64,000 nucleotides of DNA from an uncultured Mycoplasmatota bacterium (GCA_947166445.1 CAMVED010000003.1:589-64588); one strand, 5' to 3'; positions 30,190 to 52,820 are shown, numbered from the stretch's first letter. The notes: generated from the sequence alone by a model not told the origin. Numbers and translations are program-made.

Positions 30190-30200
30190 TCTTCAGGGGG
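30190..30200 (+). repeat. Island junction core TCTTCAGGGGG, copy 1 (putative attL of island A)
   Basis: Exact 11-mer, identical to 41335-41345 and 52738-52748. Confidence 0.6.
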
Positions 30201-30450
30201 CGGTTTAGATTTTTAAGAATATTTCGCAAAATGTCAAATCTTTTTCAAAGCCATTTTTGCCTTAAAAATACTTTGCTTTGAACGGTTTTTTCCTGTATGA
30301 ATACCTTTGGTGAGACGTAACATTTTTTATTTCAATTTCTTATAAGATGCTATATTTTACATTTTAAGTACCACTTTTTAAGCCAAAAATACTTGACTTT
30401 AATCAATAAAAGAGTGATTAATACAATACCTTTTGAAGGGAGGTATTATA

Positions 30451-30708
30451 TTGAAAGCTAAAGAAATATTAGAAATAATTTCTATGCCCTGGTGTTCTAA
30501 TCAAGATATCATGAAAATTGGTAATGTATCCACTTCTACTGCAAGTAAAATAAAGAAAGTAATAGAAAGTGAATTCAGAAAAAAAGAGCCAAACAAATTC
30601 ATGCCTGCTCACTGTGTTCCAACTAAAGAAGTAATCAAATATTTTGATCTTGATATTGAGTTTTTAAAATCTGTTATTTATCTAGATAAAGAAGAAAGAG
30701 TTGAATAA
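30451..30708 (+). CDS. Small DNA-binding-like protein (HTH/excisionase-like?)
   Basis: TTG start 6 nt after GGGAGG. NQDIMKIGNVSTSTASKIKK is HTH-like. Start codon uncertain. Confidence 0.45.
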   Translation: MKAKEILEIISMPWCSNQDIMKIGNVSTSTASKIKKVIESEFRKKEPNKFMPAHCVPTKEVIKYFDLDIEFLKSVIYLDKEERVE

Positions 30709-30719
30709 TTTTTCGACTC

Positions 30720-31769
30720 TTATTTTATTTCATTTGCTATAACAATTCTTAATTTTTCAAGATCAATTTTTTCTTCGTTCACATATTCATTTTTTCTAGC
30801 AATTATTTTATTCCAAATACTCAGTATTTTTTTATTATTTATAATTTTATCGTCAAGTTTATAATCCTTTTGTAGTAATTCTTTGTGTACAAATAAAGAT
30901 ACAATAGTATTATCTATTATTGTATGAATTTTTTCTTCACTTCTATCAAAATTACTACTAATTAAGTTTAGATAGTAAACAACTTCTTCTCTAAAAACAA
31001 ATAAATCCAAATTTAAAATATCAGATAAATATATTAAATCAATAGCTTGACAAAATCTTCCATATAAGAATTCATATAAAGCTTCCATAATATCCATTGG
31101 ATTAGATGAGTCTATAATTCTTCCACTGCTTTTACAAAAATTAACAATTTTTTCTGTTATATTTTTACTTATATCTTTTTGGTGAGTAAATATGTAATCG
31201 GCTTTAACAAGCTTATTTAGTTCTTCTACATCATTAACACTTTTAGAATAATTTATCAAATCTTCATTACTTTGAATTGGATAATTAGTAAATTCAGTCA
31301 ATGATTGATATGTAAATCTGTTACTAATATAGTTTATATCATCTGAAATATCTGGATAATACAACCTCATTGGAACTATCAATATGTTATTTTTATTGAT
31401 TAATTTTTTATTATCTATAATATTATCAACAATACATATCAAGATTTCTATAATTCTATTTTCATCTATTACATCGTTCAATCTAAACATATTAATCATT
31501 TTACAAATAGGTTCATCCATTATTACCGCATTATTAATGCATAAAGGCAACTTGTGCTCATATTCACTAAAATGAATATACATAGCACCACCAATATATG
31601 AACACTTTTGATATTTTAAAAATTCACAAATAAACTGTTTTTTCTTCATCCAAAATAATTCTATTTCATCCAAAACATCCAAAAACTCATCTTGATTACT
31701 TAATCTTAGTTTTAATTTTTCTATTAACATCAAATATTGCTTATTAATATTTATTATTCTATGATCCAT
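30720..31769 (-). CDS. Hypothetical 349-aa protein (island A cargo, gene 2 of an unknown pair)
   Basis: Long ORF with an 11-nt overlap onto the upstream gene. No motif recognised. Confidence 0.6.
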   Translation of the reverse strand: MDHRIININKQYLMLIEKLKLRLSNQDEFLDVLDEIELFWMKKKQFICEFLKYQKCSYIGGAMYIHFSEYEHKLPLCINNAVIMDEPICKMINMFRLNDVIDENRIIEILICIVDNIIDNKKLINKNNILIVPMRLYYPDISDDINYISNRFTYQSLTEFTNYPIQSNEDLINYSKSVNDVEELNKLVKADYIFTHQKDISKNITEKIVNFCKSSGRIIDSSNPMDIMEALYEFLYGRFCQAIDLIYLSDILNLDLFVFREEVVYYLNLISSNFDRSEEKIHTIIDNTIVSLFVHKELLQKDYKLDDKIINNKKILSIWNKIIARKNEYVNEEKIDLEKLRIVIANEIK

Positions 31770-33195
31770 ACTTTCTCAATTCCTCTATTTTGAAATTTTC
31801 ATACTGTGAATTCAATAATTCTATAAATTTATTGGAAATCTTTATCATATCTGATTTTATACTTGAACACTTAACTTCAAAATTAATGTCTGACTGAAAA
31901 TGACTTTTATGCAATGGATTAGAACAAGAAACAGTAGCACTTTCTCTTATAGCACCCCAATGACCATGTGAAAACTGCACATCATAATCATACAATAAAT
32001 CATACAATTCTTTCTCGCCTATTTCTTTAAATCTATCTTTAATACTTTTTTTATCAAAATAACCCAAGTTAACATCAAGATATTCCTCAGATTTCAGTTC
32101 ATTGGAAAGAGCTTCCAACACTAAAGGTAACATATGTCCATATTCTTTTATTTTGTTATCACGTGCTTTAACATTGATAAGTTTATAATGTCCTAATCCA
32201 TCCTCAATATAATCTATGTATATATTTGGATTGGTCTTTTCTTCAACAACTAAAAATTTAGCAATCACGTAGCAATCCATTAACGTTCTCATTAGAATTC
32301 TACCTGATATTTTAAAGTATAAATCGTTCTCATCAATTTCGTTCATTATTTTTAAAAAATAATTAAAAATTGAAGTTAAAACATTGAATTTTGTATTGTC
32401 AAAATCTTTAGAATTTTCACAAACTAATAATGATAACTGTTTTTTTGCTTCTTGAATATATTCTTTCATATTTACATTACACCTTTCTTTATAATCTATA
32501 TAAAAGTTATCACAATCACTTACTTTACCAAGAACATCCCAAAAATATAAATAATAGTTTCTTGGTTCATATATAGGCTCAGCAGCTATTTCTGTACTTC
32601 TAATCAAGGATCTATATAATTTCATTCTTTCATCTGTATGATCTAAATAGCAATATTCTTTAATTGCATCCATTGTTTCCATTTCCTCAATAAAATGAAG
32701 CTTACCCTGCGCAAATAAAAAATAAACTATAATAAATCTTACATCAGTAGATACTTCTGAATGATCATCAATTAAATTTTTAATATTTTCTTTTATTTGA
32801 TTTATTCTATACTTGTTTGGCATCTTAAAATCATAAAATTTTTTTCTATACAATTCATTATTATCACAAACACAACAAAAAACATCCATTATAGTTTTGT
32901 CAATTGTTAATGCAATAAAATCATATAATTCACAATTGTTCAATTCTAACAAAGAAGAAAATCTTAAATCATTTATTTCAAGCTTATTATTTACTATGTA
33001 TTCAATAATACTATATACTTTCTTAAATCCTTCTTTGCGACCATACTTATTAAGTATACATCCAAGCCATAAATATTCAGGGACTCTTTCCTTATACCAA
33101 GATCTCAGAGTAAATTTATCGCCTATTACTGCATTCCATGGAGTTAACAATTGCTTCTTGACCAGTTTATGTTCTTTTAGTGTGCTATTACGCAT
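31759..33195 (-). CDS. Hypothetical 478-aa protein (island A cargo, gene 1 of an unknown pair)
   Basis: Start moved to MRNSTLKEH (AGGAGG RBS). All-helical looking, with a FSHGHWGAIRE motif near the C-terminus. No family recognised. Confidence 0.6.
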   Translation of the reverse strand: MRNSTLKEHKLVKKQLLTPWNAVIGDKFTLRSWYKERVPEYLWLGCILNKYGRKEGFKKVYSIIEYIVNNKLEINDLRFSSLLELNNCELYDFIALTIDKTIMDVFCCVCDNNELYRKKFYDFKMPNKYRINQIKENIKNLIDDHSEVSTDVRFIIVYFLFAQGKLHFIEEMETMDAIKEYCYLDHTDERMKLYRSLIRSTEIAAEPIYEPRNYYLYFWDVLGKVSDCDNFYIDYKERCNVNMKEYIQEAKKQLSLLVCENSKDFDNTKFNVLTSIFNYFLKIMNEIDENDLYFKISGRILMRTLMDCYVIAKFLVVEEKTNPNIYIDYIEDGLGHYKLINVKARDNKIKEYGHMLPLVLEALSNELKSEEYLDVNLGYFDKKSIKDRFKEIGEKELYDLLYDYDVQFSHGHWGAIRESATVSCSNPLHKSHFQSDINFEVKCSSIKSDMIKISNKFIELLNSQYENFKIEELRKYGS

Positions 33196-33302
33196 ATTTA
33201 ACCTCCTATCAAAAAAGTAGAGCATACCCCATTATTAAAATGAAATATTCTCTACTATCTGTAATTATATTATACCACTATTTCAATAAATATTAAACAC
33301 TT

Positions 33303-34238
33303 TTATAAAAAATAATCTTTTAATACTTCATCTAACATACCATATTTAGCTAAATGATAATTCATTAAATAATCCAGATTTCTAAACCCTTTTTGTAATT
33401 GATTCTTATCTTTATTATCCCAACACATTCCATCTGTTAATAAAATAAATCCTATATTAAGTTTCTTTAAATCATTTTGTCTATTTATGTAACTATCTAT
33501 AATTTCTTCCGGTTTTGAACCACCTCTAAAGAAATAGTCAACTTCTATATTTAATACTTTATTTTCTTTTACTAAAATAAAATCTGCTTTTCTATTTGCG
33601 ACATCCGAAGACACTTTAAATCCATAATCTTTCAATACTTTAAATTGTTTTTGAGATATCAAAGATATATCATATTTTTTACATACTTCAGAGATAATTG
33701 GCTCACATGCATCTTCAAATGCAGTTCCTCCTCTATTCTTTCTGCCATTTGAATCTAAGCCAACTAAAACTCCTATAACATAATCAATAACACTTTTTTC
33801 TAACAGGTTTTCAAACAAATCTTTTAATCCCATTTTTTCGAAAAAGATATAGTATATTTCAATCGTTTCATCAGATAGTCCACCACTTATTTCATTTACA
33901 TTAAAATTATATGAATAAAAATCATCTTCATCTAAATCTTCATTTACTACTTGTAGATCATTTTTACCTTTCCAAACATCTTTGCGTTCACTTTTAGAAA
34001 GGGCAAATAATAATGGAAAAGTTGCTATTACTGTAGGAATCTTTCTTGCTAATTCAACAAATTTCTTATGAATATCATCACATCTTATTAAAACATTCAT
34101 AGCATTTAATTCTATCTCAAAATTTCTATAATCAAGTACATTGCCCCAATTAACATAGAAGTTAAATCCTCTATTAGTTGCAACTAAATTATCAACGAAT
34201 AATTCAGCTAATTCATCATTACTCATATTTTTATACAT
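33303..34238 (-). CDS. dpnB: Type II restriction endonuclease, DpnII/MboI family (GATC)
   Basis: DYVIGVLVGLDSNGRKNRGGTAFE and NIEVDYFFRGGSK closely parallel S. pneumoniae DpnII (DYVTGVEVGMDTNGRKNRTGDAME; IEVNFYSGSGSK). Confidence 0.85.
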   Translation of the reverse strand: MYKNMSNDELAELFVDNLVATNRGFNFYVNWGNVLDYRNFEIELNAMNVLIRCDDIHKKFVELARKIPTVIATFPLLFALSKSERKDVWKGKNDLQVVNEDLDEDDFYSYNFNVNEISGGLSDETIEIYYIFFEKMGLKDLFENLLEKSVIDYVIGVLVGLDSNGRKNRGGTAFEDACEPIISEVCKKYDISLISQKQFKVLKDYGFKVSSDVANRKADFILVKENKVLNIEVDYFFRGGSKPEEIIDSYINRQNDLKKLNIGFILLTDGMCWDNKDKNQLQKGFRNLDYLMNYHLAKYGMLDEVLKDYFL

Positions 34239-34995
34239 TTTCTTCTAACCTCCTAATTGTAAGATCTAAATAATCTTTTTCTTTATCAATTCCTATATAT
34301 TTTCTTTTTAGCCTACTGGCAACAATGCCTGTAGTTCCACTACCATTGAATGGATCAAGTATTAAATCCTTTTCATCTGTAGATGCAAGTATTATTTTTT
34401 CTAGAAGTGCTATTGGTTTTTGTGTAGGATGTTTACCACACTTTTTTTCACTCGGTTTAGTTAATGATGTTTCCCATACATCTTTCATTTGTTTACCATC
34501 ATTTAATTCTTTCATCACATCATAGTTAAATTTATGTTTAGCTTTTTTTATGTCTTTTTTAGCCCATAAAATCGTTTCTGTTGAGTGAACAAAGGCACGA
34601 CAGCTAATATTAGGAGGCGGATTTAATTTCTTCCATGTGATGTTATTTATAACCTTAAATCCCTCTTCTTCAAGTGCCATACCAATTGAATAAATATTAT
34701 GCATCGTTCCACTTATCCATATTGTTCCATCATCTTTTAAAACTCGCTTACAGGCTCTTATCCATTTCTTATTGAAGTTATGCTTTTCTTTGATGCCTAT
34801 CTTCTCATCCCATTCCCCTTTTTTAACTGATACCATTTTACCTGCACTACAAGTTATTCCATCTCCTGACAAAAAATATGGAGGATCTGCAAATATCATA
34901 TCAATAGTTTGTGGCTTGATTTTTTTCAATAATAAAAGGGCATCGCCATGCAATAATTTAAAATCATCTTTTTCGTAGTAATAATCCTCACTCAT
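34231..34995 (-). CDS. dpnA: N6-adenine DNA methyltransferase, N4/N6 (DpnA-like) family
   Basis: FADPPYFL motif IV precedes DPFNGSGTTG motif I. Start moved to M4 (AGGAGGTG RBS). Confidence 0.85.
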   Translation of the reverse strand: MSEDYYYEKDDFKLLHGDALLLLKKIKPQTIDMIFADPPYFLSGDGITCSAGKMVSVKKGEWDEKIGIKEKHNFNKKWIRACKRVLKDDGTIWISGTMHNIYSIGMALEEEGFKVINNITWKKLNPPPNISCRAFVHSTETILWAKKDIKKAKHKFNYDVMKELNDGKQMKDVWETSLTKPSEKKCGKHPTQKPIALLEKIILASTDEKDLILDPFNGSGTTGIVASRLKRKYIGIDKEKDYLDLTIRRLEENV

Positions 34996-35029
34996 GTAAT
35001 GCACCTCCTATATATATTATTACCTTAAA

Positions 35030-35881
35030 TTATGAAAACTCCTTACTATTTTCGTAATTTGTTATAATTACTTCTTCAACTTTACCTCTTTTTTTCCCAT
35101 TGGAATTTATATTTCTTTTAGCTTCAATAATATAGATATTATAGTCTTTATATAATTCATTGATTAATACTGTATTATGATTAGAAAGCATTACATAACA
35201 TCCTTTGTCAGATAATTCTTTATAAACTTTAGCTAATCTTTTTTGTTGTTCTTTTCCAAATCCATCTTCAGTATAACTATTAAATGTTGAGGTATCTGAA
35301 TCATATGGTGGATCAAAATATATAAAATCACCTTTTTTAGCATCTTTCACTGCTTCTTCAAAATCCACACTCAATATTTTAATATCATTCATTGTTAAAT
35401 AATTGCTAACTGTTATTAGATTACCACCCTCGTAAGTATTAACTTTTAATTTCTTACCAAATGGAACATTAAATTCATTCTTGCTATTTACTCTATATAA
35501 TCCATTAAAACAAGCTTTATTTAAATAAATTGTTCTTCCTGCTCTTGTATAATCTGATAGTCTATTAAATGATGCTTTATTTCTATCTTTATTTCTTATT
35601 TCATAAAAGAAATCTTCACTATGATTTGCTTCATAATTATTCAAAACATTACACATTTTTTTAAATTTATCTTCATCACATAAAACTTTGTAAACATTTA
35701 TAAGTTCTTCATTCGAATCATTGATAACTGCTTTTTTTGGAGATAATTCAAACAATAATGCGCCACCACCGACGAATGGTTCATAATAAGTATTAAACTC
35801 ATCAGGCACATATTGTAATAATTTATCAATTATTTGTCTTTTTCCTCCAACCCATTTAACAAATGGTTTTGCTTTTATCAT
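35030..35881 (-). CDS. dpnM: Dam-type (D12 class) N6-adenine DNA methyltransferase (DpnM-like)
   Basis: KPFVKWVGGKRQ, EPFVGGGA and FIYFDPPY. Start moved to M6. Confidence 0.9.
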   Translation of the reverse strand: MIKAKPFVKWVGGKRQIIDKLLQYVPDEFNTYYEPFVGGGALLFELSPKKAVINDSNEELINVYKVLCDEDKFKKMCNVLNNYEANHSEDFFYEIRNKDRNKASFNRLSDYTRAGRTIYLNKACFNGLYRVNSKNEFNVPFGKKLKVNTYEGGNLITVSNYLTMNDIKILSVDFEEAVKDAKKGDFIYFDPPYDSDTSTFNSYTEDGFGKEQQKRLAKVYKELSDKGCYVMLSNHNTVLINELYKDYNIYIIEAKRNINSNGKKRGKVEEVIITNYENSKEFS

Positions 35882-36024
35882 GTTATCTACCTCCAATTAA
35901 GTACATATTAATTATACCATTAAAATAATATTTTTCCTATAAAACTAATTATTAATTACACAATTTTTAATAATACTTGCAATATCTTTTAATTTAAGTG
36001 ATTAATACAACAGGAGGTATATTT

Positions 36025-36348
36025 ATGATCAGAAAATCTAATGGAAAAGATATTAGTGAAGAAGAATGGAACAATGTATTAAATCCTTTTTATGATAATT
36101 ATACTAATTTTATGGAAAGTTATGTTATGCCAGAAGTTATTGCTTTTTATATAGCAAGTTCCTTTTACAGAAATGCTATGTGGGAATCTACTTTTAAACA
36201 ACATTATAATTCTGGAAAGGAATATTTAAATATTTTTGATGAGAACTATAGAAAAGTAAAATCTGAAGTTATTAAATTATTAAGAATTAAATATTCCTTA
36301 GAAATCACTAATGAAAATCCTTTAGAACTTAAAAAAATAGAGTATTAG
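36025..36348 (+). CDS. Conserved island protein (paralog of 46573-46896), function unknown
   Basis: AGGAGG RBS. Clearly homologous to the island B copy (shared PEVIAFYIASSFYRNAMWE and KLLR.KYSLEI.NE.PL), and the upstream DNA is also conserved. Confidence 0.65.
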   Translation: MIRKSNGKDISEEEWNNVLNPFYDNYTNFMESYVMPEVIAFYIASSFYRNAMWESTFKQHYNSGKEYLNIFDENYRKVKSEVIKLLRIKYSLEITNENPLELKKIEY

Positions 36349-36463
36349 TATTTGCTAATCTCTTTTCTATTACAAAAAAAGAACAAGAGTACGGGTAAAA
36401 TCCCGCAGTCAAGTTCCTATTTACTTCTATCATTCTTTTTGTTTATTGTCAAGAAAATTCAAT

Positions 36464-36643
36464 TTATTCAACATCTTCACTAAGCTCAACATAATCTTCT
36501 AATGTTCCTATACGTCTTAAATAGTCATGTCCTCCATCAACTGCAATTGCCCCACATTTGCAATACTTGAAATCATGTCTATGTTTAGATTCAATTACAT
36601 CTCCACATTTTTTACATTTAACTTTATTGGTTATTATACTCAT
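36464..36643 (-). CDS. Small zinc-ribbon protein
   Basis: CKKCG...CKCG Cys4 pattern. Start moved to M23 (AGGAGG RBS). Confidence 0.5.
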   Translation of the reverse strand: MSIITNKVKCKKCGDVIESKHRHDFKYCKCGAIAVDGGHDYLRRIGTLEDYVELSEDVE

Positions 36644-36696
36644 TATTCTTACCTCCTGAAGCAACAATACTACAACAATTCTAATAAGTCTATATA

Positions 36697-36805
36697 ATTT
36701 ATTTTCCAAAAAACTCAGGGAAAATATAAAATTGTGTGAATGGAGGTGGCTGGTCGGTCTAGAAATTTACCAAATTAAAAAGAGTTATCCCTGGGGGGGT
36801 ACTCT
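36697..36805. repeat. Conserved non-coding block shared by islands A and B (copy A), ending in a GC hairpin terminator
   Basis: ATTTATTTTCCAAAAAACTCA.GGAAAATATAAA.TTGTGTGAAT..AGGTGGC... aligns with 47088-47195. The hairpin plus T-run on the minus strand follows the replisome-organizer stop. Confidence 0.7.
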
Positions 36806-36820
36806 TCGTTGGTTATATTT

Positions 36821-37648
36821 TTAGTAATAATTTTCTATGAATTTAGAACGCCAATCTGTTTCAATTCTTGCAGGTGTTTCATGTAAATAAGATTTAAAAG
36901 AATTACCAAATAATGTTATAGGTCTTAAGTATTCTTCATAATCATCATTACCTATCCACTCATATACTTTATTATCTATAACCTTATAAAAATCTTCTAA
37001 CTTATATCCATCATTTAATCTTTGTTTGATCAAACTAACTGTTTTTTTAGAATCAGGTTTGAAGTTTTTATAAGCTTTTTTATTTAAGTAATTAATTACA
37101 CTACTACATATATCCTGCAAAGCAGGATTTTCTACAACTTCTAGTTGTTCAAAAGAACAATTATAATTTTCTTCTTTTATATTTCTTTCTTCTAATATCT
37201 GATTTCTAATATCTAAGTTCTGATTTCTAGTTTCTTCTTCTGGTGGACAATCAGGTGGACATTTGTCCACTTTTCTTTTTCTTTGTTTTTGTTTCTTTTC
37301 AGCACTAACAGTTTGATTAGTATAGTTAAGAGCTTTCTCGATATATAACATACCATCTTTTGAATCTATAAGGCCTACTTCATGTAATCGATCAATTCTT
37401 CTTACTAAATCTCCCACATCAGTATTAGTCTTTTTGGCTAAAACTTCTATTGTATATGGTTTTAATTCTCCTGATATTAACCTACATAAATATCCACATT
37501 TGTTCATAGCTATTGTTATTAATTTTAAGTATAAAATAATTGTACTATCCCCATCATAATCATTTGATAACTCCTCAATTTCATCAGTATCAAAAAAAGA
37601 ATCAGGGAACTTAAAAAAGTACATCTCTGTTTTATTATACTTGGCCAT
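36821..37648 (-). CDS. Phage replisome organizer / conserved phage C-terminal domain protein (DnaD-like)
   Basis: The N-terminus YFFKFPDSFFDTDEIEEL is typical of the phage replisome-organizer N-terminal region. The C-terminus VINYLNKKAYKNFKPDSKKTVSLIKQRLNDGY is typical of the conserved phage C-terminal domain. Confidence 0.7.
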   Translation of the reverse strand: MAKYNKTEMYFFKFPDSFFDTDEIEELSNDYDGDSTIILYLKLITIAMNKCGYLCRLISGELKPYTIEVLAKKTNTDVGDLVRRIDRLHEVGLIDSKDGMLYIEKALNYTNQTVSAEKKQKQRKRKVDKCPPDCPPEEETRNQNLDIRNQILEERNIKEENYNCSFEQLEVVENPALQDICSSVINYLNKKAYKNFKPDSKKTVSLIKQRLNDGYKLEDFYKVIDNKVYEWIGNDDYEEYLRPITLFGNSFKSYLHETPARIETDWRSKFIENYY

Positions 37649-37907
37649 TTTTTTCTAATATTCTTTGTCTTTCTGCAATAGCATACGGTTCTATATCTTT
37701 CCAATTAACAGAATTTTTTATTTCGTTTCTTGGTGTTATACCTAAAAATATATAGTTACATACTGCATAATAGAATTTATTTATCTCATAATTACTAGCA
37801 TTTTCTATTTCATAATACACTTTCATAAATTCTGGAATCGTTGTAACACTTTCTTGTTTTTTATATTCTTGGCGAATATAATTATAATACTGCTTTTGAT
37901 CTTTCAT
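37635..37907 (-). CDS. Hypothetical protein of the island A early operon
   Basis: 90-aa ORF with a GAGGTAAAG RBS. 14-nt overlap with the replisome-organizer gene. Confidence 0.5.
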   Translation of the reverse strand: MKDQKQYYNYIRQEYKKQESVTTIPEFMKVYYEIENASNYEINKFYYAVCNYIFLGITPRNEIKNSVNWKDIEPYAIAERQRILEKNGQV

Positions 37908-37919
37908 TTTCTTTACCTC

Positions 37920-37956
37920 TTTCTTTATAATTATTTGTTCTTTAGTTTGTCAGACT
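37920..37956. repeat. Left arm of a 37/38-bp inverted repeat bracketing the cro/cI module
   Basis: The reverse complement AGTCTGACAAACTAAAGAACAAATAATTATAAAGAAA matches 39048-39085 with one mismatch and one indel. Confidence 0.8.
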
Positions 37957-38180
37957 ATTTTTTGATTACCTATGACTAATTCTTTGCAATCCGCTGAATA
38001 TACAACATCACCATATTTAACATTGTATAAACTTAATATTTCACTTAATCTTTTAAAGTCAGGATGCGTTTTATTATTCTCATAGCTTCTTAATGTTTCA
38101 GTACTTATATTTAACTTACTACATGCTTGTTTAAGAGTTAATCCTGCATTTATTCTAAGTGCTCTTAAAGATATTTTCAT
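37950..38180 (-). CDS. XRE-family HTH regulator (Cro-like)
   Basis: LRINAGLTLKQACSKLNISTETLRSYENNK HTH. Divergent from the cI-like gene. Confidence 0.8.
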   Translation of the reverse strand: MKISLRALRINAGLTLKQACSKLNISTETLRSYENNKTHPDFKRLSEILSLYNVKYGDVVYSADCKELVIGNQKIV

Positions 38181-38326
38181 ATGTCTACCTCCTTTCTATT
38201 TTCAATTCAATTATATCGCACACTTTTGTATTTGTAAATACTTTTTATGAGATATTTAACATTTGTTTTGTTTTATACTTGACAAATATTACATTTTACT
38301 TTATTATCTTAGTAGGAGGTAAAAAT

Positions 38327-38998: not shown

Positions 38999-39047
38999 AA
39001 AAATCTCGTACTGCGAATACGAGATAGGAACTACCAAAATATGTTTC

Positions 39048-39085
39048 AGTCTGACAAACTAAAAAACAAATACATTATAAAGAAA
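39048..39085. repeat. Right arm of the inverted repeat, upstream of integrase 1
   Basis: AGTCTGACAAACTAAAAAACAAATACATTATAAAGAAA. See 37920-37956. Confidence 0.8.
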
Positions 39086-40298: not shown

Positions 40299-40309
40299 CT
40301 CCCGGCCTT

Positions 40310-44813: not shown

Positions 44814-46423
44814 TATTCTTCCTCACTTTCTAACGATTGAATAATATTTAAATTATAATTGTCAACATCATATTTACATTTATCTAATAAAATTTCAGGA
44901 ATTTTTCTTATAACAATATTTTTATATTTCTTCACAATATTGGTGTCATATGAAGTACAAGCAATTATTAAAAATTCATTTTCTTTCATGCTTTGATATA
45001 TACTATCTAACAGGTTTTCATTAACAAAATTTGTAGTTGTATATAAATAACTATTTTCTGTCCCTATGGATTGTTTCCAAAATATTTCAGGAGAAGGATT
45101 ATAAGTATAATTCTCATGAAGAGCAACTGCAGAAGCAAGCATCTCAGCATTATATTGTTTATTGATAACTTGAATTCCAAAACAATCTTCTTTTATTAGA
45201 GTTGGCGCTAGTTCATAGAATTTGTAGCCTCCGCCACCTTTCCAATTTACAAGTTCACTTATACCCTTCGTATCTTTTCCAGTAATAACATCATTTATTC
45301 TAGGAATACAATGTGTATAACAATGATCTCTCATTTCTATTCCTATCCATTTTCTATTCATTTTGTGTGCTACCGCACATGTAGAACCACTTCCTAAAAA
45401 AGAATCTAAAACATAATCACCTTCATCTGTAGACATACTTATAACTCTTTTAATTAATCTCTCAGGTTTTTTCCCAGCCTTAAAATCACCATTTCCTTCT
45501 TGAAATAAGTTGTTAAATCCAATATCTGTCCATAAGTCACACACCAATCTAGCAAGCACAAATCCATCATTCGTTTCTTTGATACTATTGTCAATTAATT
45601 GAACCTGTCTACCTTTATATGCAAAATAACCTGGCATTTCATCAATTGGCACAACACAATCTTTGTTATATTTTTCAACATCTTTAATTCTTGCTAATCC
45701 GACCGGCTGAAAAATTCTATTTTTATTTTCATAAACCCATTTATTAAATGCATTATTATTAATATCTGCAATAAGATTTTTTTCTTTTAAAACATCACTA
45801 ATCGAAACCACTTCACAAGATGATAAATCATTTAGATTTCCTTTTATATACTTATTGTAATGAGAATCCCATGAATCAGCCTTAATATATTCTCGATTAA
45901 ATCTTACACATTCTCTTTTTTTAGAATATACAAGAATATATTCTTTCTCTTTTAATATTTTTTTCTCTGCATGTTGAATTTTAACGCCATTAGGTGGACT
46001 GACTTTTATTGAGATTGTGTTAATAAAATTATTTCTACCAAAAATTTCATCGCAAAGAACCTTTAAGTATGCCATCTCTCCATCATCAATTTGAATCCAT
46101 ATTAATCCATCATCAGTCAACAATTCTCTTAAAAGTTCAAGTCTTTGTCTCATTAAATTTAACCAAATTGAATGTTCTAAATTATCATCATAATGTTCAA
46201 ATGCACTACCAGTATTATACGGAGGATCAATGTAAATACATTTGATTTTGCCTGTAAAATCTTTTTGCAATGCTTTAAGTGCTAGCAAGTTATCTCCATG
46301 TATCAACTTATTATCAGTATTACTATCACCAAAAGATTTCGACTTTTCTTCCAATAATATTCTTGGTTCTATTGATTCTCTTTTTTCTTTTCCAATCCAC
46401 ATAAGTTCTAATTTGTTCTTCAT
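44813..46423 (-). CDS. mod: Type III DNA methyltransferase, Mod subunit (beta-class N6-adenine)
   Basis: IYIDPPYNTGS (motif IV) precedes DSFLGSGSTC (motif I). Start moved to M9 (GAGGGTGG RBS). Confidence 0.85.
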   Translation of the reverse strand: MKNKLELMWIGKEKRESIEPRILLEEKSKSFGDSNTDNKLIHGDNLLALKALQKDFTGKIKCIYIDPPYNTGSAFEHYDDNLEHSIWLNLMRQRLELLRELLTDDGLIWIQIDDGEMAYLKVLCDEIFGRNNFINTISIKVSPPNGVKIQHAEKKILKEKEYILVYSKKRECVRFNREYIKADSWDSHYNKYIKGNLNDLSSCEVVSISDVLKEKNLIADINNNAFNKWVYENKNRIFQPVGLARIKDVEKYNKDCVVPIDEMPGYFAYKGRQVQLIDNSIKETNDGFVLARLVCDLWTDIGFNNLFQEGNGDFKAGKKPERLIKRVISMSTDEGDYVLDSFLGSGSTCAVAHKMNRKWIGIEMRDHCYTHCIPRINDVITGKDTKGISELVNWKGGGGYKFYELAPTLIKEDCFGIQVINKQYNAEMLASAVALHENYTYNPSPEIFWKQSIGTENSYLYTTTNFVNENLLDSIYQSMKENEFLIIACTSYDTNIVKKYKNIVIRKIPEILLDKCKYDVDNYNLNIIQSLESEEE

Positions 46424-46572
46424 ATTACCACCCTCATCGCTTAGCAATTCTCTTAACTAAAATTATATCACAAAAATGCAGTTTTTTATTACATATACAC
46501 ATTAATTATTAAAAATTGTTTAAATCTTGCATTATTTTTAATTTAGAGTAATTAATACATACGGAGGTGTTT

Positions 46573-46896
46573 ATGTTAAGGAAATGTACTGATGAAGATA
46601 TAAGTGATGAGGAATGTGAAAAGGTTATTGATCCTTTTTATGATAACTATGATAGTTATTTGGAAGAATATGTTATTCCTGAAGTTATAGCATTTTATAT
46701 TGCTAGTTCTTTTTATAGAAATGCTATGTGGGAAGCAACTTTTGAACAACATTTTAATTCTGCTTTTGATACATTTAATCTGATGTGTAAAAATTATAAA
46801 AAAATGAAAGCTGAGGTTATTAAATTACTCAGATTAAAATATTCTTTAGAAATTATCAACGAGGATCCTTTAGACTTCAAAATAATTGAGTATTAG
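46573..46896 (+). CDS. Conserved island protein (paralog of 36025-36348)
   Basis: GGAGGTG RBS. High similarity to the island A copy. Same position, divergent from the RM methylase gene. Confidence 0.65.
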   Translation: MLRKCTDEDISDEECEKVIDPFYDNYDSYLEEYVIPEVIAFYIASSFYRNAMWEATFEQHFNSAFDTFNLMCKNYKKMKAEVIKLLRLKYSLEIINEDPLDFKIIEY

Positions 46897-46950
46897 TGAT
46901 TACTAATCTCTTTTTTTTATTGTAGTAGTAATACAATAAAAATATATATT

Positions 46951-46999
46951 CTTTTCTTATTCTTTCCTTATCCTTATCCTTATTCTTATCCTTATCCTA
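46951..46999. repeat. Tandem hexamer array (CTTATC/CTTATT-type, about 8 units)
   Basis: CTTTTCTTATTCTTTCCTTATCCTTATCCTTATTCTTATCCTTATCC, read directly. Confidence 0.75.
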
Positions 47000-47008
47000 G
47001 GAGGTCAT

Positions 47009-47090
47009 TGATTATTATTTGATTTCAATTTGATTATATTTTGATTTTTGTTTGATTTGTTTTTGATTTTGTTTTGGTTGATAAATGATT
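47009..47090. repeat. Iteron-like array: TGATT repeated with strict 11-bp phasing (8 positions, one degenerate)
   Basis: TGATT occurs at 47009, 47020, 47031, 47042, 47053, 47064 and 47086, with TGGTT at 47075. Candidate replication origin. Confidence 0.7.
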
Positions 47091-47195
47091 TATTTTCCAA
47101 AAAACTCACGGAAAATATAAATTTGTGTGAATTTAGGTGGCAGATCGGTGTTGATTTTTTTACCAAATAAAAAGAGCTATCCCCCGGGGGATGCT
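47088..47195. repeat. Conserved non-coding block (copy B), ending in the palindrome ATCCCCCGGGGGAT terminator
   Basis: Aligns with 36697-36805. The hairpin plus T-run on the minus strand follows the rep-remnant stop. Confidence 0.7.
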
Positions 47196-47499
47196 AAAAT
47201 GGAAAGTCAATGTTGTGGTAATTCACTTCATATTCATCATTCAAACATTCATTCTTAACCCAATTAGAACCGTATTTTATATGAATATCAGGAGTGTCAT
47301 CATTTTTTAAAAATTCTATATAATTATCCAAGCCTTGTTCTATAATTTCAAACGATTCTCCATTTTTTATTGCTTGATTATAATAATATAAAGCTTCTTT
47401 TTTACCAACTCTTTTAGGATATTTATCCCATAATAGTTCAAACTGATTTATTGTTTTTGGATCAATGTCAGAAACATCAAAAGTGCTACACAACCTCAT
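47194..47499 (-). pseudogene. Probable remnant of a phage replication-associated gene (C-terminal domain only)
   Basis: It retains FELLWDKYPKRVGKKEALYYYNQAI... There is no convincing RBS. The 5' part of the track ORF (47500-47559) runs into DNA homologous to the non-coding int leader of island A. Confidence 0.4.
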
Positions 47500-47711
47500 A
47501 AGGCTATAAGAGTTTCTAAAAATATATAAAAAAAATCTCGTACTGGAATACGGGATCAATCAGAAATACCGTTTTGTTAGAGTCTGAAAAACTTTAAACA
47601 AATAAACATTATATAAATACAATGTAATGGGATTTCCTAAATTAATTATACCATTTTTATATAATATTACAAGTTTTTAACGGTATTTCCTTTGTAGAAA
47701 GGAATTTTTAT

Positions 47712-48836
47712 ATGGATGTGTATAAAGATAATAGGCCTACCAAAGATGGTAAGATATGGTTTTATAAGACTCAATATGAAGATATTGATGGTACTCATAA
47801 GATTAAAAAATTAGGTAGATATGCAACTAAAAAAGAAGCAGAAGATGCTGAATTTGAATTTAAATTAAAACTAAGAGAATATGAGAATACTAATAATGTG
47901 ACTTTTGAAGAAATGATTAGGATGTTTATTGATTTTAGAAAAGATAAAGTTAAGGAAAATACGTTATATGGTTATAACAATAAATTACCTTATTTAAAAT
48001 CACTATATAAAGTTAAGCTTAAAGATTTTAACTACCCTACTTTTGAAAGATGGCATGATGAAATAAATAGTACTCATCTTGCTACAAGAACTAAAAATGA
48101 CATTTATAAATTATTAAAAACTATTTTGAATTATGCTACTGCTTGGCATGAGTTTAACTTTGCTAAGGTATATCCTAAAATGTATAACTTTAATGATCCG
48201 AATGAATTTCCAAAAGAACAATTATTTTTTACTTATGAAGAATTTAAGCAATTTCTTTCTGTTGAAACTGATATCAAATGGATTGGTATTTTTGAAATAT
48301 TATACTATTGTGGATTAAGACGTGGTGAGCTTAGAGGATTACAATGGAAAGATATCAATTTTAAAGATAGAACTTTAAGTATATCTAAGCAAATTAATGA
48401 TCGTTGTGGATCCGTTAAAAATTGGCGATTCTCGGTTCCAAAAACTAAAAGTAGTATAAGAATATTAAAGATGCCACAATTCCTTACAAACGACCTTAAA
48501 ATGATGAAAAACGAGGCAGAAAAGATACCTGGATTTAATGATAACTTCTTTATAGCTGGAGATATGCTTCCTGTATGTAGTAATACACTTACTAATCATA
48601 AAAATGTTAATTGTAAATTAGCTAATGTTAAGCAAATTAGATTACACGATTTTAGACATTCATGTGCATCTCTTTTAGTTAATAAAGGAGCTAATGTTCA
48701 AGTAGTAGCAAAATACTTAGGTCATACAAAAGTTGAAGAAACTCTAAAGACTTATTCACACCTATTTACAAGCACTTTAGATGAAGTAGTTGCTGTAATA
48801 GATAATTTAGATAATAATAAAACCGATGATGTTTAG
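47712..48836 (+). CDS. int: Tyrosine recombinase (phage integrase family), island B
   Basis: Homologous along its length to 39183-40298. HDFRHSCASLL and LGHTKVEETLKTYSHLF. Confidence 0.9.
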   Translation: MDVYKDNRPTKDGKIWFYKTQYEDIDGTHKIKKLGRYATKKEAEDAEFEFKLKLREYENTNNVTFEEMIRMFIDFRKDKVKENTLYGYNNKLPYLKSLYKVKLKDFNYPTFERWHDEINSTHLATRTKNDIYKLLKTILNYATAWHEFNFAKVYPKMYNFNDPNEFPKEQLFFTYEEFKQFLSVETDIKWIGIFEILYYCGLRRGELRGLQWKDINFKDRTLSISKQINDRCGSVKNWRFSVPKTKSSIRILKMPQFLTNDLKMMKNEAEKIPGFNDNFFIAGDMLPVCSNTLTNHKNVNCKLANVKQIRLHDFRHSCASLLVNKGANVQVVAKYLGHTKVEETLKTYSHLFTSTLDEVVAVIDNLDNNKTDDV

Positions 48837-48850
48837 TCACCGGTTATTTT

Positions 48851-50746
48851 TTATAGTAATTCAAGTTTTTCAGATAATACACTCTCTAGATAATTTACAG
48901 CTTCCTTTTTTGTAACACCATACTTATCTTTTTCCAATTTAGAAATACCATTAATAAGTTCTTCAAATGCTTCTCTATCGCTGTCATAATATTCTTTTAT
49001 ATTTCCAAAACTATACATTCTATCTATGCAATACTTAAAATGATATATATTTCTATTATTGCTTTTATCAATATTATTTATTATCTTTCCGATATTTAAT
49101 TTTGATAAAAATCCTTTACCATTAAAAAAGTAATTGTAATTCTCACTTTCATGGATATAATTATATAATTTAATTCCCCAATCATCATCATTTAATATAT
49201 TTTCAACAGAATCATTATTAATGATAGTATTCTTATTTTTACTTGCTATTTTTAATCTTTCTATATTCTTATTATAAATATTTAATACTTTCTCATTTCT
49301 AATTATTTGATCATAATTTATGTAGTATTTTCTATCGAGGTTCTTATCTATTTTGTCTTCCATAATAGTTATTATTTCATCAATAAGTTTAGGTTCAAAA
49401 TTTAAATTTTGTAATGCTGATAAAGTTACTACTATTTTTGGAAAAATACTACACGGATATAAATCATCATTTAATTCATCTTTTAATGCATTTAATAATT
49501 CACGCAGTTTATCATCTTCTAATTCCCAATAACACTTTAATTCAGAAAATGCATTATCGGAATTTTCAAAATCATTTTCATTACTATTAACATATTCATC
49601 TATAGTACTCTCTATTTCTTTTACATCTATATTTTTATTTAAAATATAATCATCAACAAATTTAAATGCTAAAAAGTACATAAAAGTACTCTGATGTTCA
49701 TCATCACCAAAACAAGTTGTTTGATATTTTATACCACCTGACCAATTCAACATTTTATTGCCTGCTTTAATATTGATAACGTCAATAATGAAATTAATAT
49801 AAATTTTTGAATACATTTCTTTTTCTAATTTTAAATTTGCTTTCTTTATTTTTAAATATAACTCATAGAAATCTTCAAATATACATTTTACTGTTCTTAG
49901 ATTTCCACAAGTATATAAGTTTATTTCATTCATCAATGTTTTTTTATGTTCTTTTAAAAACAAATAATAAGCATTATCATATTTATAAATATCTATTAAT
50001 TTATCGATTATTGTATCCAAATTAGGAATATACTTATAAGTTTTACCAATAAGCTTTTCTTTAATAAGCCTATAGTTATAGTTCATTTCATATAAACGAT
50101 CTACTCTTTCTTTAATAATAGAAATACTTGGTACTGTAGTATCAACTTTTTTTCCAAAAAAATCTTTCTTTTCTGGATCTTCATAATTAATATTTGATTG
50201 CATTGTAGATAAAAGTTTCAATTCATAATTTTTATTAAAATCTATTTTGCCAACTTCATTTTCATTAGCTATTATAATTACTTTAATTCCATGATGTTCA
50301 ACAAATGAATTAATGTATGCTAAACACATATTAATATCTAAATTTGCTCTTTCTAAATCATCAAATATTAGTACATAATTTTTCAAATTACTATTTTCAT
50401 TAAGTGTTCCAAATATTTCTGAATAATTCAAGTCTGGTTTTATTATTTTTATTACACTTAAGCCAAGCGAAGCTATTTTAGAATATTTACCAGTGATTTG
50501 TAAATATATTTGTGCAGAAACAGAATCTAAAGAGTCTACACCGTATAGTGATATATATAAAGGCTTTTTGTTTTTTAAAGTTGGCTTATTACCATTATTT
50601 GCAATATCTTCATTTAATTTTGGAATCAGTTCTTCTTTTATAAAATATGTTTTACCGGATCCCCATTCTCCATCTATTAATACTGCATAATTAATTCTAT
50701 CGTTCTTAATATATTTTTTTAGTTCTTCTATCAATTCTACATTCAT
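48851..50746 (-). CDS. KAP-family P-loop NTPase
   Basis: IDGEWGSGKTYF Walker A and LIFDDLER Walker B, with a long helical C-terminal region. Confidence 0.75.
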   Translation of the reverse strand: MNVELIEELKKYIKNDRINYAVLIDGEWGSGKTYFIKEELIPKLNEDIANNGNKPTLKNKKPLYISLYGVDSLDSVSAQIYLQITGKYSKIASLGLSVIKIIKPDLNYSEIFGTLNENSNLKNYVLIFDDLERANLDINMCLAYINSFVEHHGIKVIIIANENEVGKIDFNKNYELKLLSTMQSNINYEDPEKKDFFGKKVDTTVPSISIIKERVDRLYEMNYNYRLIKEKLIGKTYKYIPNLDTIIDKLIDIYKYDNAYYLFLKEHKKTLMNEINLYTCGNLRTVKCIFEDFYELYLKIKKANLKLEKEMYSKIYINFIIDVINIKAGNKMLNWSGGIKYQTTCFGDDEHQSTFMYFLAFKFVDDYILNKNIDVKEIESTIDEYVNSNENDFENSDNAFSELKCYWELEDDKLRELLNALKDELNDDLYPCSIFPKIVVTLSALQNLNFEPKLIDEIITIMEDKIDKNLDRKYYINYDQIIRNEKVLNIYNKNIERLKIASKNKNTIINNDSVENILNDDDWGIKLYNYIHESENYNYFFNGKGFLSKLNIGKIINNIDKSNNRNIYHFKYCIDRMYSFGNIKEYYDSDREAFEELINGISKLEKDKYGVTKKEAVNYLESVLSEKLELL

Positions 50747-50760
50747 AATATCCTCCTTAT

Positions 50761-50794
50761 AAAAGAAAAAATTCTATACTATAATTGTATAGAA
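50761..50794 (-). terminator. Rho-independent terminator of the Fic operon
   Basis: The minus strand reads TTCTATAC-AATTATA-GTATAGAA followed by TTTTTTCTTTT, just upstream of the KAP gene RBS. Confidence 0.55.
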
Positions 50795-50860
50795 CTTTAT
50801 GATTCAATTATACTACTTTATTTTTTAATTGTCTGCAATAATCATGCAATTTTAATAAAA

Positions 50861-50882
50861 CTTGTTTCCAAGTTGTTCCCAA
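50861..50882 (+). repeat. Tandem 11-mers CTTGTTTCCAA / GTTGTTCCCAA (candidate arm-type sites)
   Basis: Matches 41449-41470. Lies about 80 bp left of the degenerate core CAAGGGGG (50964-50971). Confidence 0.45.
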
Positions 50883-51034
50883 GAATTATTTATTATTACC
50901 CATATGCTCGTAAGTCCTTATAAATACTGGCTTAAATTAATTTCAATTTTTTGTTGGATGTGGCAAGGGGGAAAAGAGCAAATTTTATAATTATTTTTGT
51001 GTAAACTATTTACACGAAAAAAGAAGATTATTAT

Positions 51035-51283
51035 TTAATCTTCTCCCTTTTCATATAAATCATCATCTTCTAGTTCATCCTCTTCTTCCTCTAATTGATA
51101 TGGTTCATATCCTTCTACTTTTGTTTCTTCTCCTGAACCCCAAAAATCATATTTAGTTTTATTTGTATTAGAGTCTCCTAATAAATCATTAACATCTGTT
51201 AAAAACTTATTTAATTTCATTTTTCTTTGAATCTTCTTTTCTAATTTTTCTATCTTTCTTTGTTCTTTTTCTTCTCTAGTCAT
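51035..51283 (-). CDS. Small protein with basic N-terminus and highly acidic C-terminus
   Basis: Start moved to MTREEKEQ. C-terminus LEEEEDELEDDDLYEKGED. Follows the DUF3592-like gene. Confidence 0.45.
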   Translation of the reverse strand: MTREEKEQRKIEKLEKKIQRKMKLNKFLTDVNDLLGDSNTNKTKYDFWGSGEETKVEGYEPYQLEEEEDELEDDDLYEKGED

Positions 51284-51296
51284 ATTATCACCTATA

Positions 51297-51758
51297 TTAA
51301 TCACTCTTCATAGCGCTTTTAAATCCTTTATAAAAACCAATTAAATTCATACTAGATAGTACTAAAAGCATAGTTCCAAAAAGAAACGAAGGAACTGTTG
51401 ATTGTTTTGAACCAATATCAAACTGTTTATAGTTCTTAGGATTATAACTAATCTTTTGTGTACTTCCTATTATGATTTCATTGCTATTAGTTGTTGGAAA
51501 TCCATTTGCTCTTACAATTTGCCCATTATAATTATATTCATAAACTGGTTTATATACATTTATTTCTCTATTATATTCAATATCTACTACAGTAGCTGTT
51601 GCATCTTTATAAGTTATTAAATGAACTGCAGATACAAGATTAGCTACTGTCATAAGAACTCCTATTAAAAAAGCAATTATTAGACCAATAATTTTTGGTG
51701 TCATTAACGTTGCCCCTACTCCAACAGCAACTTTTTTCACTACTTCTTCATTATCCAT
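51297..51758 (-). CDS. DUF3592-like membrane protein
   Basis: TM helix, then a roughly 80-aa beta-rich segment, then a TM helix, as in DUF3592. Confidence 0.55.
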   Translation of the reverse strand: MDNEEVVKKVAVGVGATLMTPKIIGLIIAFLIGVLMTVANLVSAVHLITYKDATATVVDIEYNREINVYKPVYEYNYNGQIVRANGFPTTNSNEIIIGSTQKISYNPKNYKQFDIGSKQSTVPSFLFGTMLLVLSSMNLIGFYKGFKSAMKSD

Positions 51759-51843
51759 ACTATATACTCCTTTTTATAATATCAATTCTTTTTATCATTA
51801 TAACATATTTATAAAAAAAGCGACACTCGTAGGTGCCTATTTT

Positions 51844-52686
51844 TTATTTATTAACTAGTTCTTTAACTATTAAATCTTCTGAATGTAGATTATTAGTTTT
51901 TCCTAATAATAAATTTTCATAAAATTTAACAAGATATTTAGAATCTGTTTTAATATTTAAATCACTATTAGAATAATTACTTCTCACTAAAGCATTTCTA
52001 AAATAAACTGATTTATCTTTAAATAATGTATTATCTACTTCATAGCCTAAGCTTCTTAAATATTTTTCTATAAATACAGCAGTTGTTCTAGTATTTCCTT
52101 CTCTAAAAGGATGTACTTGCCATATTCTTGATGTAAAATCTGTAATACTACTTATTATATCTACTATATTCATATTTTTATAATCTTTATCTTTTTCTAA
52201 TCTTAAATCATATTCTAAAGAATCTTCTATCACTTTATAATCTGTATAAGGTACTGAATCTCCATTTAATATTATTTCATGTTTTGAAAAGTTTCTATCT
52301 CTTAATGTTCCTGCGAAATCATATATATCTTTAAATAAAAATTTGTGAATATCTTTTATACAATTAACAGATAACTCAAAATAATCATTTTGTAAAAATT
52401 CTACTATTCTAGTAGAAACAAGATCACACTCAAATTCATCCATGTTTATACTTTGTTTTTTATTTTTTTCTATGTAATAGTTTCTTAATTCTTGTTCTAC
52501 TTCTTTTATTGTTTTTTTACCAATTATATTTTCTTCAGTAAGATTTTCTAAATATTTAGAGGGCTTTAAGTTGTCTACTTTTTGAAGTCCAATAGCCATA
52601 TCCCAATATGTTTGTCTTTTATAACTTTCAGTTTCTTCTTTTATAATATATTCATTTACACTAGAATCATAATACTCTTCGCTCAT
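51844..52686 (-). CDS. Fic family protein (AMPylase-type fold)
   Basis: Fic motif HPFREGNTRT. Confidence 0.85.
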   Translation of the reverse strand: MSEEYYDSSVNEYIIKEETESYKRQTYWDMAIGLQKVDNLKPSKYLENLTEENIIGKKTIKEVEQELRNYYIEKNKKQSINMDEFECDLVSTRIVEFLQNDYFELSVNCIKDIHKFLFKDIYDFAGTLRDRNFSKHEIILNGDSVPYTDYKVIEDSLEYDLRLEKDKDYKNMNIVDIISSITDFTSRIWQVHPFREGNTRTTAVFIEKYLRSLGYEVDNTLFKDKSVYFRNALVRSNYSNSDLNIKTDSKYLVKFYENLLLGKTNNLHSEDLIVKELVNK

Positions 52687-52712
52687 ACAAGTCCTCCATT
52701 TACATTATATAC

Positions 52713-52814
52713 AAAAAGTGATAGGCCTTTCGGCCTATCTTCAGGGGGTTTTGGTTGAATACCACTTTTTACCTTTGTTCGTAAAAAGTAGACAAGGTTT
52801 TTTACTTACCTTGT
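52713..52814 (-). ncRNA. Candidate small RNA or cis-leader (two hairpins, C-rich single strand, terminator) containing the island junction core
   Basis: Its own TTGACA-17-TATTAT promoter. Hairpins at 52792-52814 and 52765-52788. CAACCAAAACCCCCUGAAGA, then hairpin ATAGGCC-GAAA-GGCCTAT plus CACTTTTT. Not matched to any RNA family I know. Confidence 0.4.
52738..52748 (+). repeat. Island junction core TCTTCAGGGGG, copy 3 (putative attR, recG side)
   Basis: Exact 11-mer. Confidence 0.6.
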
Positions 52815-52820
52815 AATTTC

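Follow-up and report, generated by a model that had tools for sequence, protein, structure and literature searches.

When an element integrates into a tRNA or tmRNA gene, the crossover falls inside the 3′ part of that gene, and the element brings its own copy of what is displaced, so that the gene stays functional. The DNA considered here, 64,000 nucleotides from an uncultured Mycoplasmatota bacterium (GCA_947166445.1 CAMVED010000003.1:589-64588; this whole stretch is hereafter called the window), very probably holds a variant of this arrangement, in which an 11-mer serves as the crossover core in the 3′ end of a small RNA gene beside recG, here named sRNA-1, and islands bearing a tyrosine integrase and restriction-modification (RM) systems integrate there in tandem. 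Unlike the case of tRNA and tmRNA genes, the restored part would here be mainly a rho-independent terminator, which is free to differ between elements and is no faithful copy of the part displaced.

The closest described systems share some of these features and differ in others. In Dehalococcoides, several islands lie in tandem downstream of the tmRNA gene ssrA, each bounded by a 20-bp direct repeat of the 3′ end of the gene; integration genes, including that of the CcrB-like serine recombinase DsiB, adjoin one junction, integrase-less units between repeats are read as cis-mobilizable, and an accessory-rich variable region extends past the last repeat (PMC3146451). The locus described here resembles the ssrA islands in its tandem islands 3′ of a small stable RNA gene, its short repeats and its integrase-less units, but its target is an uncatalogued RNA of ~106 nt, its core is 11 bp long, its tyrosine integrases possess arm-binding domains, and an intrinsic terminator is what is replaced (compare PMC3146451). 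In streptococci, integrative and conjugative elements (ICEs), integrative and mobilizable elements (IMEs) and cis-mobilizable elements (CIMEs) accrete into tandems of functional and decayed elements whose distantly related integrases have the same specificity, and elements that lack an integrase but possess attachment (att) sites stay in the array (PMC5704250). The array in the window matches this scheme of accretion and cis-mobilization, although its islands have none of the relaxase or conjugation genes of the streptococcal ICEs and IMEs, whose targets are the 3′ ends of tRNA or protein genes (PMC5704250). The StCI satellites of Streptococcus thermophilus are elements of 7–20 kb with attL and attR sites, genes for integrase, regulation and replication, no virion structural genes and an anti-phage benefit (PMC13376191). 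One of the two islands of the window, Island A, fits the description of StCI and similar phage-inducible chromosomal islands (PICIs); unlike in StCI/PICI elements (PMC13376191), neither genes for packaging or capsid redirection nor a helper phage could be identified, and the other island, Island B, is without a regulatory switch. The recombination mechanism is conventional and tandem accretion is known; what is new is the RNA that serves as target, the family of elements and the detail of terminator replacement.

The window has a G+C content of ~25%, nearly all of its genes lie on the minus strand, and ARAGORN detected no tRNA or tmRNA genes in it. The 11-mer TCTTCAGGGGG occurs in it as three exact plus-strand copies (c1, c2 and c3, Table 1), spaced 11,145 and 11,403 bp apart. 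With a copy at 55092 that carries one mismatch, the count exceeds anything seen in dinucleotide shuffles, which contain 0.19 matches at up to one mismatch on average and of which none in 100 reached four. The preliminary description of this DNA had been exact as to the three copies, their common orientation and the interval sizes, but the repeat is more than an anonymous stretch of 11 bp: its minus-strand reading, CCCCCTGAAGA, is the last conserved stretch of sRNA-1, and a further, degenerate junction lies on the integrase side of Island B. The run GGGGG itself is found 15 times on both strands of the window (8.4 expected); the informative plus-strand runs besides the three cores are those at 50967, in this decayed fourth junction, and at 55098, in the terminator tip of a second RNA-like unit.

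That the 11-mer is a point of crossover is indicated by related loci, designated below by L numbers. At least 120 metagenome contigs, which came from samples of human, ruminant, rabbit and chicken origin, carry 20 nt of the invariant stretch that ends in the core, and the carriers of sRNA-1 are uncultured Bacilli or Mollicutes-like bacteria of gut and rumen metagenomes. Fourteen RNA bodies (70 nt plus core) recur identically in different samples and each lead there into two to five unrelated tails, which diverge right after CCCCCTGAA, and identical terminator sequences recur behind different RNA bodies. The typical tail comprises a terminator, a motif similar to TATAAGGGnTTG, two or three tandem repeats of 9–10 nt that differ per element, and a convergent integrase gene; because the integrases carry an Arm-DNA-binding domain, the repeats are the arm-type sites that would be expected. 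Convergent integrase homologs lie downstream of the core in about 33 independent loci, starting 100–350 nt after it in 24, and in about 18 loci a second core with its own terminator bounds the insert 0.2–10 kb further on. Some loci, e.g. L014 and L043, continue straight into ordinary genes with neither arm nor integrase, and many contigs break off no more than a few dozen bases from the core, as would be expected at a place of difference between strains.

Presence/absence polymorphism in these loci falls exactly at the core. In the occupied/empty pair L047 and L121, which are identical at 89 of 89 positions upstream, L047 contains a 2745-bp insert between two cores and then resumes as the tail of L121 (40/40 identical). 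The tails after the second cores of L080, L007 and L122 likewise match the first tails of L117 (95%), L054 (92.5%) and L107 (89%), respectively. The close relative L214, on a 115-kb contig, has an RNA body close to that of the window and reads recG, RNA gene, core, a 16.5-kb island, core, a 3.1-kb integrase-less unit and core; its single island is a mosaic of modules from Islands A and B, with an integrase 73% identical to that of Island B (IntB), a distal arm homologous to 41346–41471 next to c2, and methyltransferase and 109-aa genes that are 86% identical in nucleotide sequence to those of Island A. The polymorphism at the core, the ~33 integrase loci, the L047/L121 pair and L214 support the earlier proposal that two related elements with different restriction systems occupy one att core in tandem. 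Occupancy by a single island, which had been named as a sign to look for in relatives, is found in L214, with an island of this family between two cores; the exact empty site that had been envisaged, with the sequence left of 30190 joined to that right of 52748, was not found.

The target gene was delimited by comparing the recG loci of 13 related genomes (uncultured Bacilli, 'Mycoplasma' or Erysipelotrichaceae metagenome-assembled genomes from gut and rumen). The unit conserved 3′ of recG consists of a TTGACA-17-TATTAT promoter, two hairpins, the invariant single-stranded sequence GTATTCAACCAAAACCCCCTGAAG, the end of which is the reverse complement of TCTTCAGGGGG, a variable terminator hairpin and a T-run; the stems of both hairpins vary between species while their complementarity is kept, and the conserved, C-rich single-stranded tail of sRNA-1 ends in CCCCCUGAAGA. 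Among loci with enough upstream sequence, 68 of 106 have recG upstream of the RNA gene. The RNA of the window folds as predicted (−34.1 kcal/mol, z = −5.5), and five close sequences served to build a covariance model, which recovers it in 95 loci. In the resulting alignment, standard pairs occupy 95.3% of cells, against 60.8% in shuffled sequences and 28–56% with the partners slid, and compensatory changes on both sides are seen in each of the 18 pairs; these counts are inflated, the alignment being fitted to the model, although the margin is large all the same, and the compensatory stems are evident in the raw sequences too. The covariance model was needed because MAFFT misaligned the hairpins, with the result that RNAalifold predicted no pairs in the MAFFT alignment of 58 RNA sequences. 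In a search of the window against Rfam, the sole match at gathering level was a SAM riboswitch elsewhere and the best match at the sRNA-1 locus (E = 0.49) was well below threshold, and eight diverse homologous loci yielded no Rfam match at E ≤ 0.5. Based on the promoter, the covariation, the fold and the lack of an Rfam match, we treat 52713–52818 (minus strand) as an uncatalogued small RNA gene; the target of the islands would be a widespread, structured RNA and a candidate for a new RNA family, and its conserved C-rich tail is suggestive of a base-pairing regulator.

On the other side of recG lies a second RNA-like unit (54985–55120, plus strand), which consists of a TTGACA-17-TATTAT promoter, a covarying hairpin, an invariant hairpin GCTAGT..ACTAGC, the single-stranded CAACCCCUUUUUAUUC, and a terminator with a variable stem and the conserved tip CCUYCAGGGGG. 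This unit is 93% identical in nucleotide sequence in distant relatives and has no match in Rfam. This tip and the att core of sRNA-1 are complementary, and the two units might interact; the energies of sRNA-1/second-unit duplexes were no better than those of shuffles (z −0.1 to −2.0).

Table 1. Features of the two islands, the adjoining Fic module and the target locus, in order of position in the window.
Feature	Position	Strand	Basis or remark
Core c1, distal end of Island A	30190–30200		Exact match; on the minus strand, half-decayed terminator of the L001/L084 type, no U-run
DitB and DitA (DUF5677), candidate defense pair	30720–33225	−	Island A cargo
DpnII-type cassette: endonuclease, N6_N4 and D12 methyltransferases	33303–35896	−	Pfam
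Hallmark ~109-aa protein, Island A copy	35998–36348	+	
Phage-type replisome organizer/DnaD-like loader	36821–37648	−	Pfam Phage_rep_org_N, Phg_2220_C; PHROG replication families
Divergent regulators	37950–38998		Cro-like helix-turn-helix (HTH) protein 37950–38180 (−); cI-like HTH/S24 repressor 38159–38998 (+)
IntA tyrosine integrase	39183–40298	+	Pfam Phage_integrase, Arm-DNA-bind_4; R, HxxR and Y motifs seen in alignment
275-aa cargo protein between integrase and junction	40310–41137	−	No family match
Island A arm-type repeats, TAGGCCCAAT twice	41241–41261	−	Preceded by TAAGGGTTTGCAAG at 41280–41293
Core c2, Island A/B junction	41335–41345		Exact match; followed by intact minus-strand terminator, −13.1 kcal/mol
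Island B arm-type repeats, integrase-distal: TGGGGAACAA, TTGGGAACAA	41450–41470	−	~105 bp from c2; homologous to L214 distal arm
Type III RM	42156–46447	−	Res 42156–44813, Mod 44813–46447; Island B cargo
Hallmark ~109-aa protein, Island B copy	46567–46896	+	
Truncated replication-initiator remnant	47194–47559	−	Covers only positions 169–253 of the 383-position PHROG 270 profile
IntB tyrosine integrase	47712–48836	+	Pfam Phage_integrase, Arm-DNA-bind_4
KAP-family NTPase (PADLOC PDC-S49)	48851–50746	−	Island B cargo
Island B arm-type repeats, TTGGGAACAA twice	50862–50882	−	Beside degenerate core; also after the junction in L026 and L031
Degenerate core TGGCAAGGGGG (7/11), Island B integrase-side junction	50961–50971		CCCCCTTGCCA on the minus strand; terminator decayed
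Integrase-less Fic module	50972–52737	−	Fic 51844–52686 (PADLOC PDC-S72), 153-aa protein 51297–51758, 89-aa protein 51035–51304; Pfam and PADLOC
sRNA-1, integration target	52713–52818 (~106 nt)	−	Hairpin 1, hairpin 2, single-stranded tail GUAUUCAACCAAAACCCCCUGAAGA, terminator hairpin and U-run
Core c3, working 3′ end of RNA gene	52738–52748		Exact match; minus-strand terminator, −15.1 kcal/mol
sRNA-1 promoter, TTGACA, 17-nt spacer, TATTAT	52821–52849	−	Read from sequence; −35/−10 boxes conserved in the recG-downstream alignment
recG	52873–54924	−	Pfam RecG_wedge, DEAD, Helicase_C, RecG_dom3_C; conserved chromosomal gene upstream of target RNA gene

We propose that a circular element equipped with a tyrosine integrase and an attP site (core, its own terminator and arms) would recombine with the chromosomal core, so that the RNA gene would keep its body and gain the terminator of the incoming element, while the previous terminator would be pushed to the distal end of the insert, free to decay. 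Successive integrations at the RNA-proximal core would then generate a tandem array, to be read outward from the RNA gene as Fic module, Island B and Island A, and recombination between non-adjacent cores could move neighboring units jointly. The terminators found in the window match this model, being strong and different in sequence at c3 and c2 and decayed at c1 and at the degenerate junction (energies in Table 1).

Outward from c2, Island A (30201–41334) carries the 275-aa protein, the integrase IntA, the cI-like repressor facing the Cro-like regulator, a 90-aa protein, the replisome organizer, a DUF7695 protein, the hallmark 109-aa gene, the DpnII cassette, DitA/DitB and a 91-aa protein. 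Its arm is also found after the RNA gene in L020, and a homolog of its 275-aa protein stands beside the core in L068; its methyltransferase genes (34250–35896) are those shared with L214, whose DpnII endonuclease gene gave no match at the DNA level. With 11.1 kb between flanking att cores, an integrase, a divergent cI/Cro pair and a replication module, Island A has the gene complement by which satellites are recognized and is apparently a complete satellite-like element.

The tandem layout of the preliminary description stands, but the right-hand interval, described as one island, is a composite of Island B and the Fic module. The degenerate core at 50961–50971 has no hairpin left (−0.2 kcal/mol), intact junctions with a homologous flank occur in L026 (second core) and L031, and the degenerate core is followed by TATAAGGACTTACGAG and then by the repeats TTGGGAACAA/TTGGAAACAA at 50862–50882. 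Because of the homology of this decayed junction and the presence of arm-type repeats at both ends, we place Island B proper at 41346–50960, and since Island B has its own junction there, the Fic segment is a separate integrase-less module, the Fic gene of which comes directly after the c3 terminator; in L029 and L074, a lone Fic gene lies between two cores that are 1358 bp apart. The cargo of Island B also includes a 195-aa protein, and Pfam and PHROG scans of the island found no cI/Cro pair. Island B is a degraded related element and may not be autonomous. The colinearity and homology that had been noted between the two intervals are confirmed by IntA and IntB, which are 51% identical over 371 aa, by the hallmark plus-strand proteins of ~110 aa (64% identical), and by three DNA blocks of 66–84% identity (35910–36366/46461–46914, 36691–36798/47082–47190 and 38987–40242/47520–48771). 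The earlier assignment of a DpnII-type cassette to one interval and of a type III system to the other is correct.

Short integrase-less units of 0.2–3.1 kb between two perfect cores, with terminators of their own, were observed in L047 (as compared with L121), L029/L074, L122, L015 and L214 (71–3219). They contain, for example, a single Fic gene, a pair of methyltransferase-like and DUF262-like genes, or a signal peptidase together with a Flg_new protein, and presumably either depend on an integrase acting in trans or are remnants of larger elements. In several element arms (L018, L065, L214 and L218), a second, imperfect core-like motif (AACTCCCTGAAG or AACTCCTTGAAG) follows 70–80 nt after the core and stands between the TAAGGGTTTG motif and the GGGAACAA arm repeats.

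It is possible, although we hold it doubtful, that the islands are fixed relics, the repeats recording past integrations with no present excision. Several findings favor this and, together with the inflation of the covariation counts noted above, weigh against the main reading. Island B may be fixed because it has no cI/Cro regulators, a replication gene that is truncated and a junction that has decayed; no arm repeat was detected at the distal, c1 end of Island A; neither an excisionase nor a relaxase was recognized in the islands of the window even at E ≤ 1, of which the lack of an excisionase counts here; and neither an attP site nor an empty site was recovered for the genome of the window, for which no exact-protein records were found with recG or with the gene left of c1. 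A pattern scan of viral contigs gave no circular junction of Island A, and a scan of viral contigs for the sRNA-1 tail also gave no match. The c3 terminator GATAGGCCGAAAGGCCTATC (52720–52739) poses a further difficulty, since it is one base off the terminator after the outermost (third) core of L214 (L214 45–80); the simple model would make that L214 copy the native, displaced terminator, and at least one extra exchange is therefore assumed. Against fixed relics, however, both integrase open reading frames (ORFs) are full length with catalytic motifs present, the three cores are all exact, Island A retains a complete switch and replication module, and in related populations this site is commonly polymorphic from strain to strain. 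From these sequences, we infer that both integrases are probably active and that the islands may still excise. Because no relaxase or structural genes are present, our best guess is that transfer would occur by way of a helper phage or competence, as for phage satellites.

It is unlikely that the two intervals are decayed prophages, i.e. complete temperate phages that integrated and then lost their structural genes, although their modules are phage-like (cI/Cro, replisome organizer, integrase) and relatives of the integrases occur in Clostridioides and Staphylococcus phages (~33%) and in IMG/VR viral contigs (≤46% identity). No capsid, tail, portal or terminase gene was found in 30190–52748 (Pfam on ORFs of at least 70 aa in coding frame; PHROGs on ten of these ORFs, which include the replication and repressor genes and otherwise mostly encode proteins that Pfam does not recognize). 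The compact layout without structural genes but with varied cargo recurs in the independent loci L214 and L218 in the order cargo, hallmark 109-aa gene, replication/regulation, integrase, cargo, and the family of the hallmark protein comprises over 600 sequence clusters. In addition, the core is absent from all 74 viral contigs with integrase relatives, and thus no phage using the site was identified.

As to the type of element, no helper-hijacking genes (small terminase, capsid-size redirection, packaging interference) were recognized among the island genes, of which several encoding small proteins, including the 109-aa protein, are without assignment; for want of recognized packaging or hijacking genes, Island A is not classed as a satellite despite its gene complement, which Island B, with its truncated replication gene and no regulators, does not share. 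Pfam detected no relaxase domain in either island of the window, whereas the element at the same RNA-gene site in L026 carries a Mob_Pre relaxase and is an IME; the site is therefore common to different types of element. The islands agree with those at the 3′ ends of RNA genes in having full-length integrases, repeats within the target gene, a restored terminator and, in the related loci, polymorphism at the repeats. An integron-type cassette array was rejected, as the integrases lie inside the elements and have arm-binding domains, and the arm repeats differ per element, although short integrase-less units between cores do occur. It is a long shot, but the locus may do more than receive elements passively, in that integrases acting in trans may shuffle integrase-less units of 0.2–3 kb, each ending in core plus terminator, at the tail of a strongly transcribed small RNA gene; both the 3′ end of the RNA and the read-through into the first cassette would then depend on how the units are ordered and how strong each new terminator is, in an integron-like exchange of defense genes based on a regulatory RNA gene.

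The remaining alternatives have little to recommend them. That the 11-mer is a dispersed motif unrelated to the boundaries, e.g. a piece of a common type of terminator, can be given almost no credence and was rejected: the one-mismatch copy at 55092 does lie within a terminator loop, and the c2 and c3 copies adjoin terminators, but the former is part of a different conserved unit, there are no further copies at up to two mismatches in plausible positions across the 64 kb apart from the degenerate junction at 50961–50971, the 11-mer has a fixed place in one RNA gene in at least 120 loci, and its extra copies occur only downstream of that gene, in the same orientation, where they bound inserts. 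It is equally far-fetched that the right-hand interval is a tandem duplicate of the left that later diverged, with no independent integration, as the likeness in size and gene order might suggest; this was rejected because of the divergence of the integrases, the confinement of DNA similarity to three short blocks, the different arm repeats (TAGGCCCAAT in Island A, TTGGGAACAA in Island B) and the greater similarity of IntB to the L214 integrase than to IntA.

If the 11-mer is the crossover core, as we believe, the 3′ end of sRNA-1 is a new integration hot spot, where uncultured, low-GC, Mollicutes-like Bacilli of the gut and rumen gather RM and other anti-phage systems, and with the crossover point pinned down exactly, metagenomes can be searched automatically for the limits of such islands. 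The rule that an element enters a stable RNA gene at its 3′ end and replaces what it displaces would also be extended from tRNA and tmRNA genes to a terminator-ended small RNA, in which each element carries its own version of the terminator because the replaced part need only fold.

The hallmark ~109-aa family has neither a Pfam domain nor a PHROG match. In the relatives L214 and L218, its gene always stands between restriction/defense cargo and the replication/regulation genes. A conserved non-coding block of ~90 nt (TTTATTTTCCAAAAAACTCACGGAAAATAT..GTGTGAAT..GGTGGCTGGTCGGT..AAAAAGAGTTATCCC..GGGGG) is present beside the hallmark gene or the replication gene in four elements (window 36700–36800 and 47082–47190; L214 10353–10436; L218 4639–4721), and might act as an origin or as a site for packaging or transfer, or encode an RNA of the element.

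The DNA left of 30190 is accessory and defense-like and is not demonstrably conserved chromosome; no integrase remnants and no core-like or arm-like sites were found in it. A SAM riboswitch (RF00162, 66 bits) lies at 10921–11004 (minus strand), upstream of a gene for a 192-aa protein without Pfam match (9974–10552). From 17298 to 30059, the minus strand presents a run of defense-type genes: NERD-HRDC, a methyltransferase, DUF1810 with ADP-ribosylglycohydrolase, a type I S fragment, a macro domain with an AAA-M41 protease, two GmrSD proteins and a CapR/DUF4379 zinc-finger protein. Homologs of some of these genes occur inside islands at the same RNA gene in L124 and L104, and those of CapR are part of an ICE in L213 or neighbors of NERD-HRDC and transposases in L208–L212. 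The gene next to c1 is considered accessory because its homologs (≤72% identity) sit in an ICE or beside transposases, and the DNA left of c1 (~17–30 kb) may be older accreted material. Further out, the minus-strand genes at 4009–6132 (an 83-aa protein, a 115-aa protein and DUF2779) are 46 kb from the RNA gene in the window, and their homologs lie 0.5–1.6 kb downstream of the RNA gene in the distant, unoccupied-looking loci L014, L043 and L061. This weak synteny hints that much of the region from 6 to 52 kb, a zone far larger than the two islands, may be accreted.

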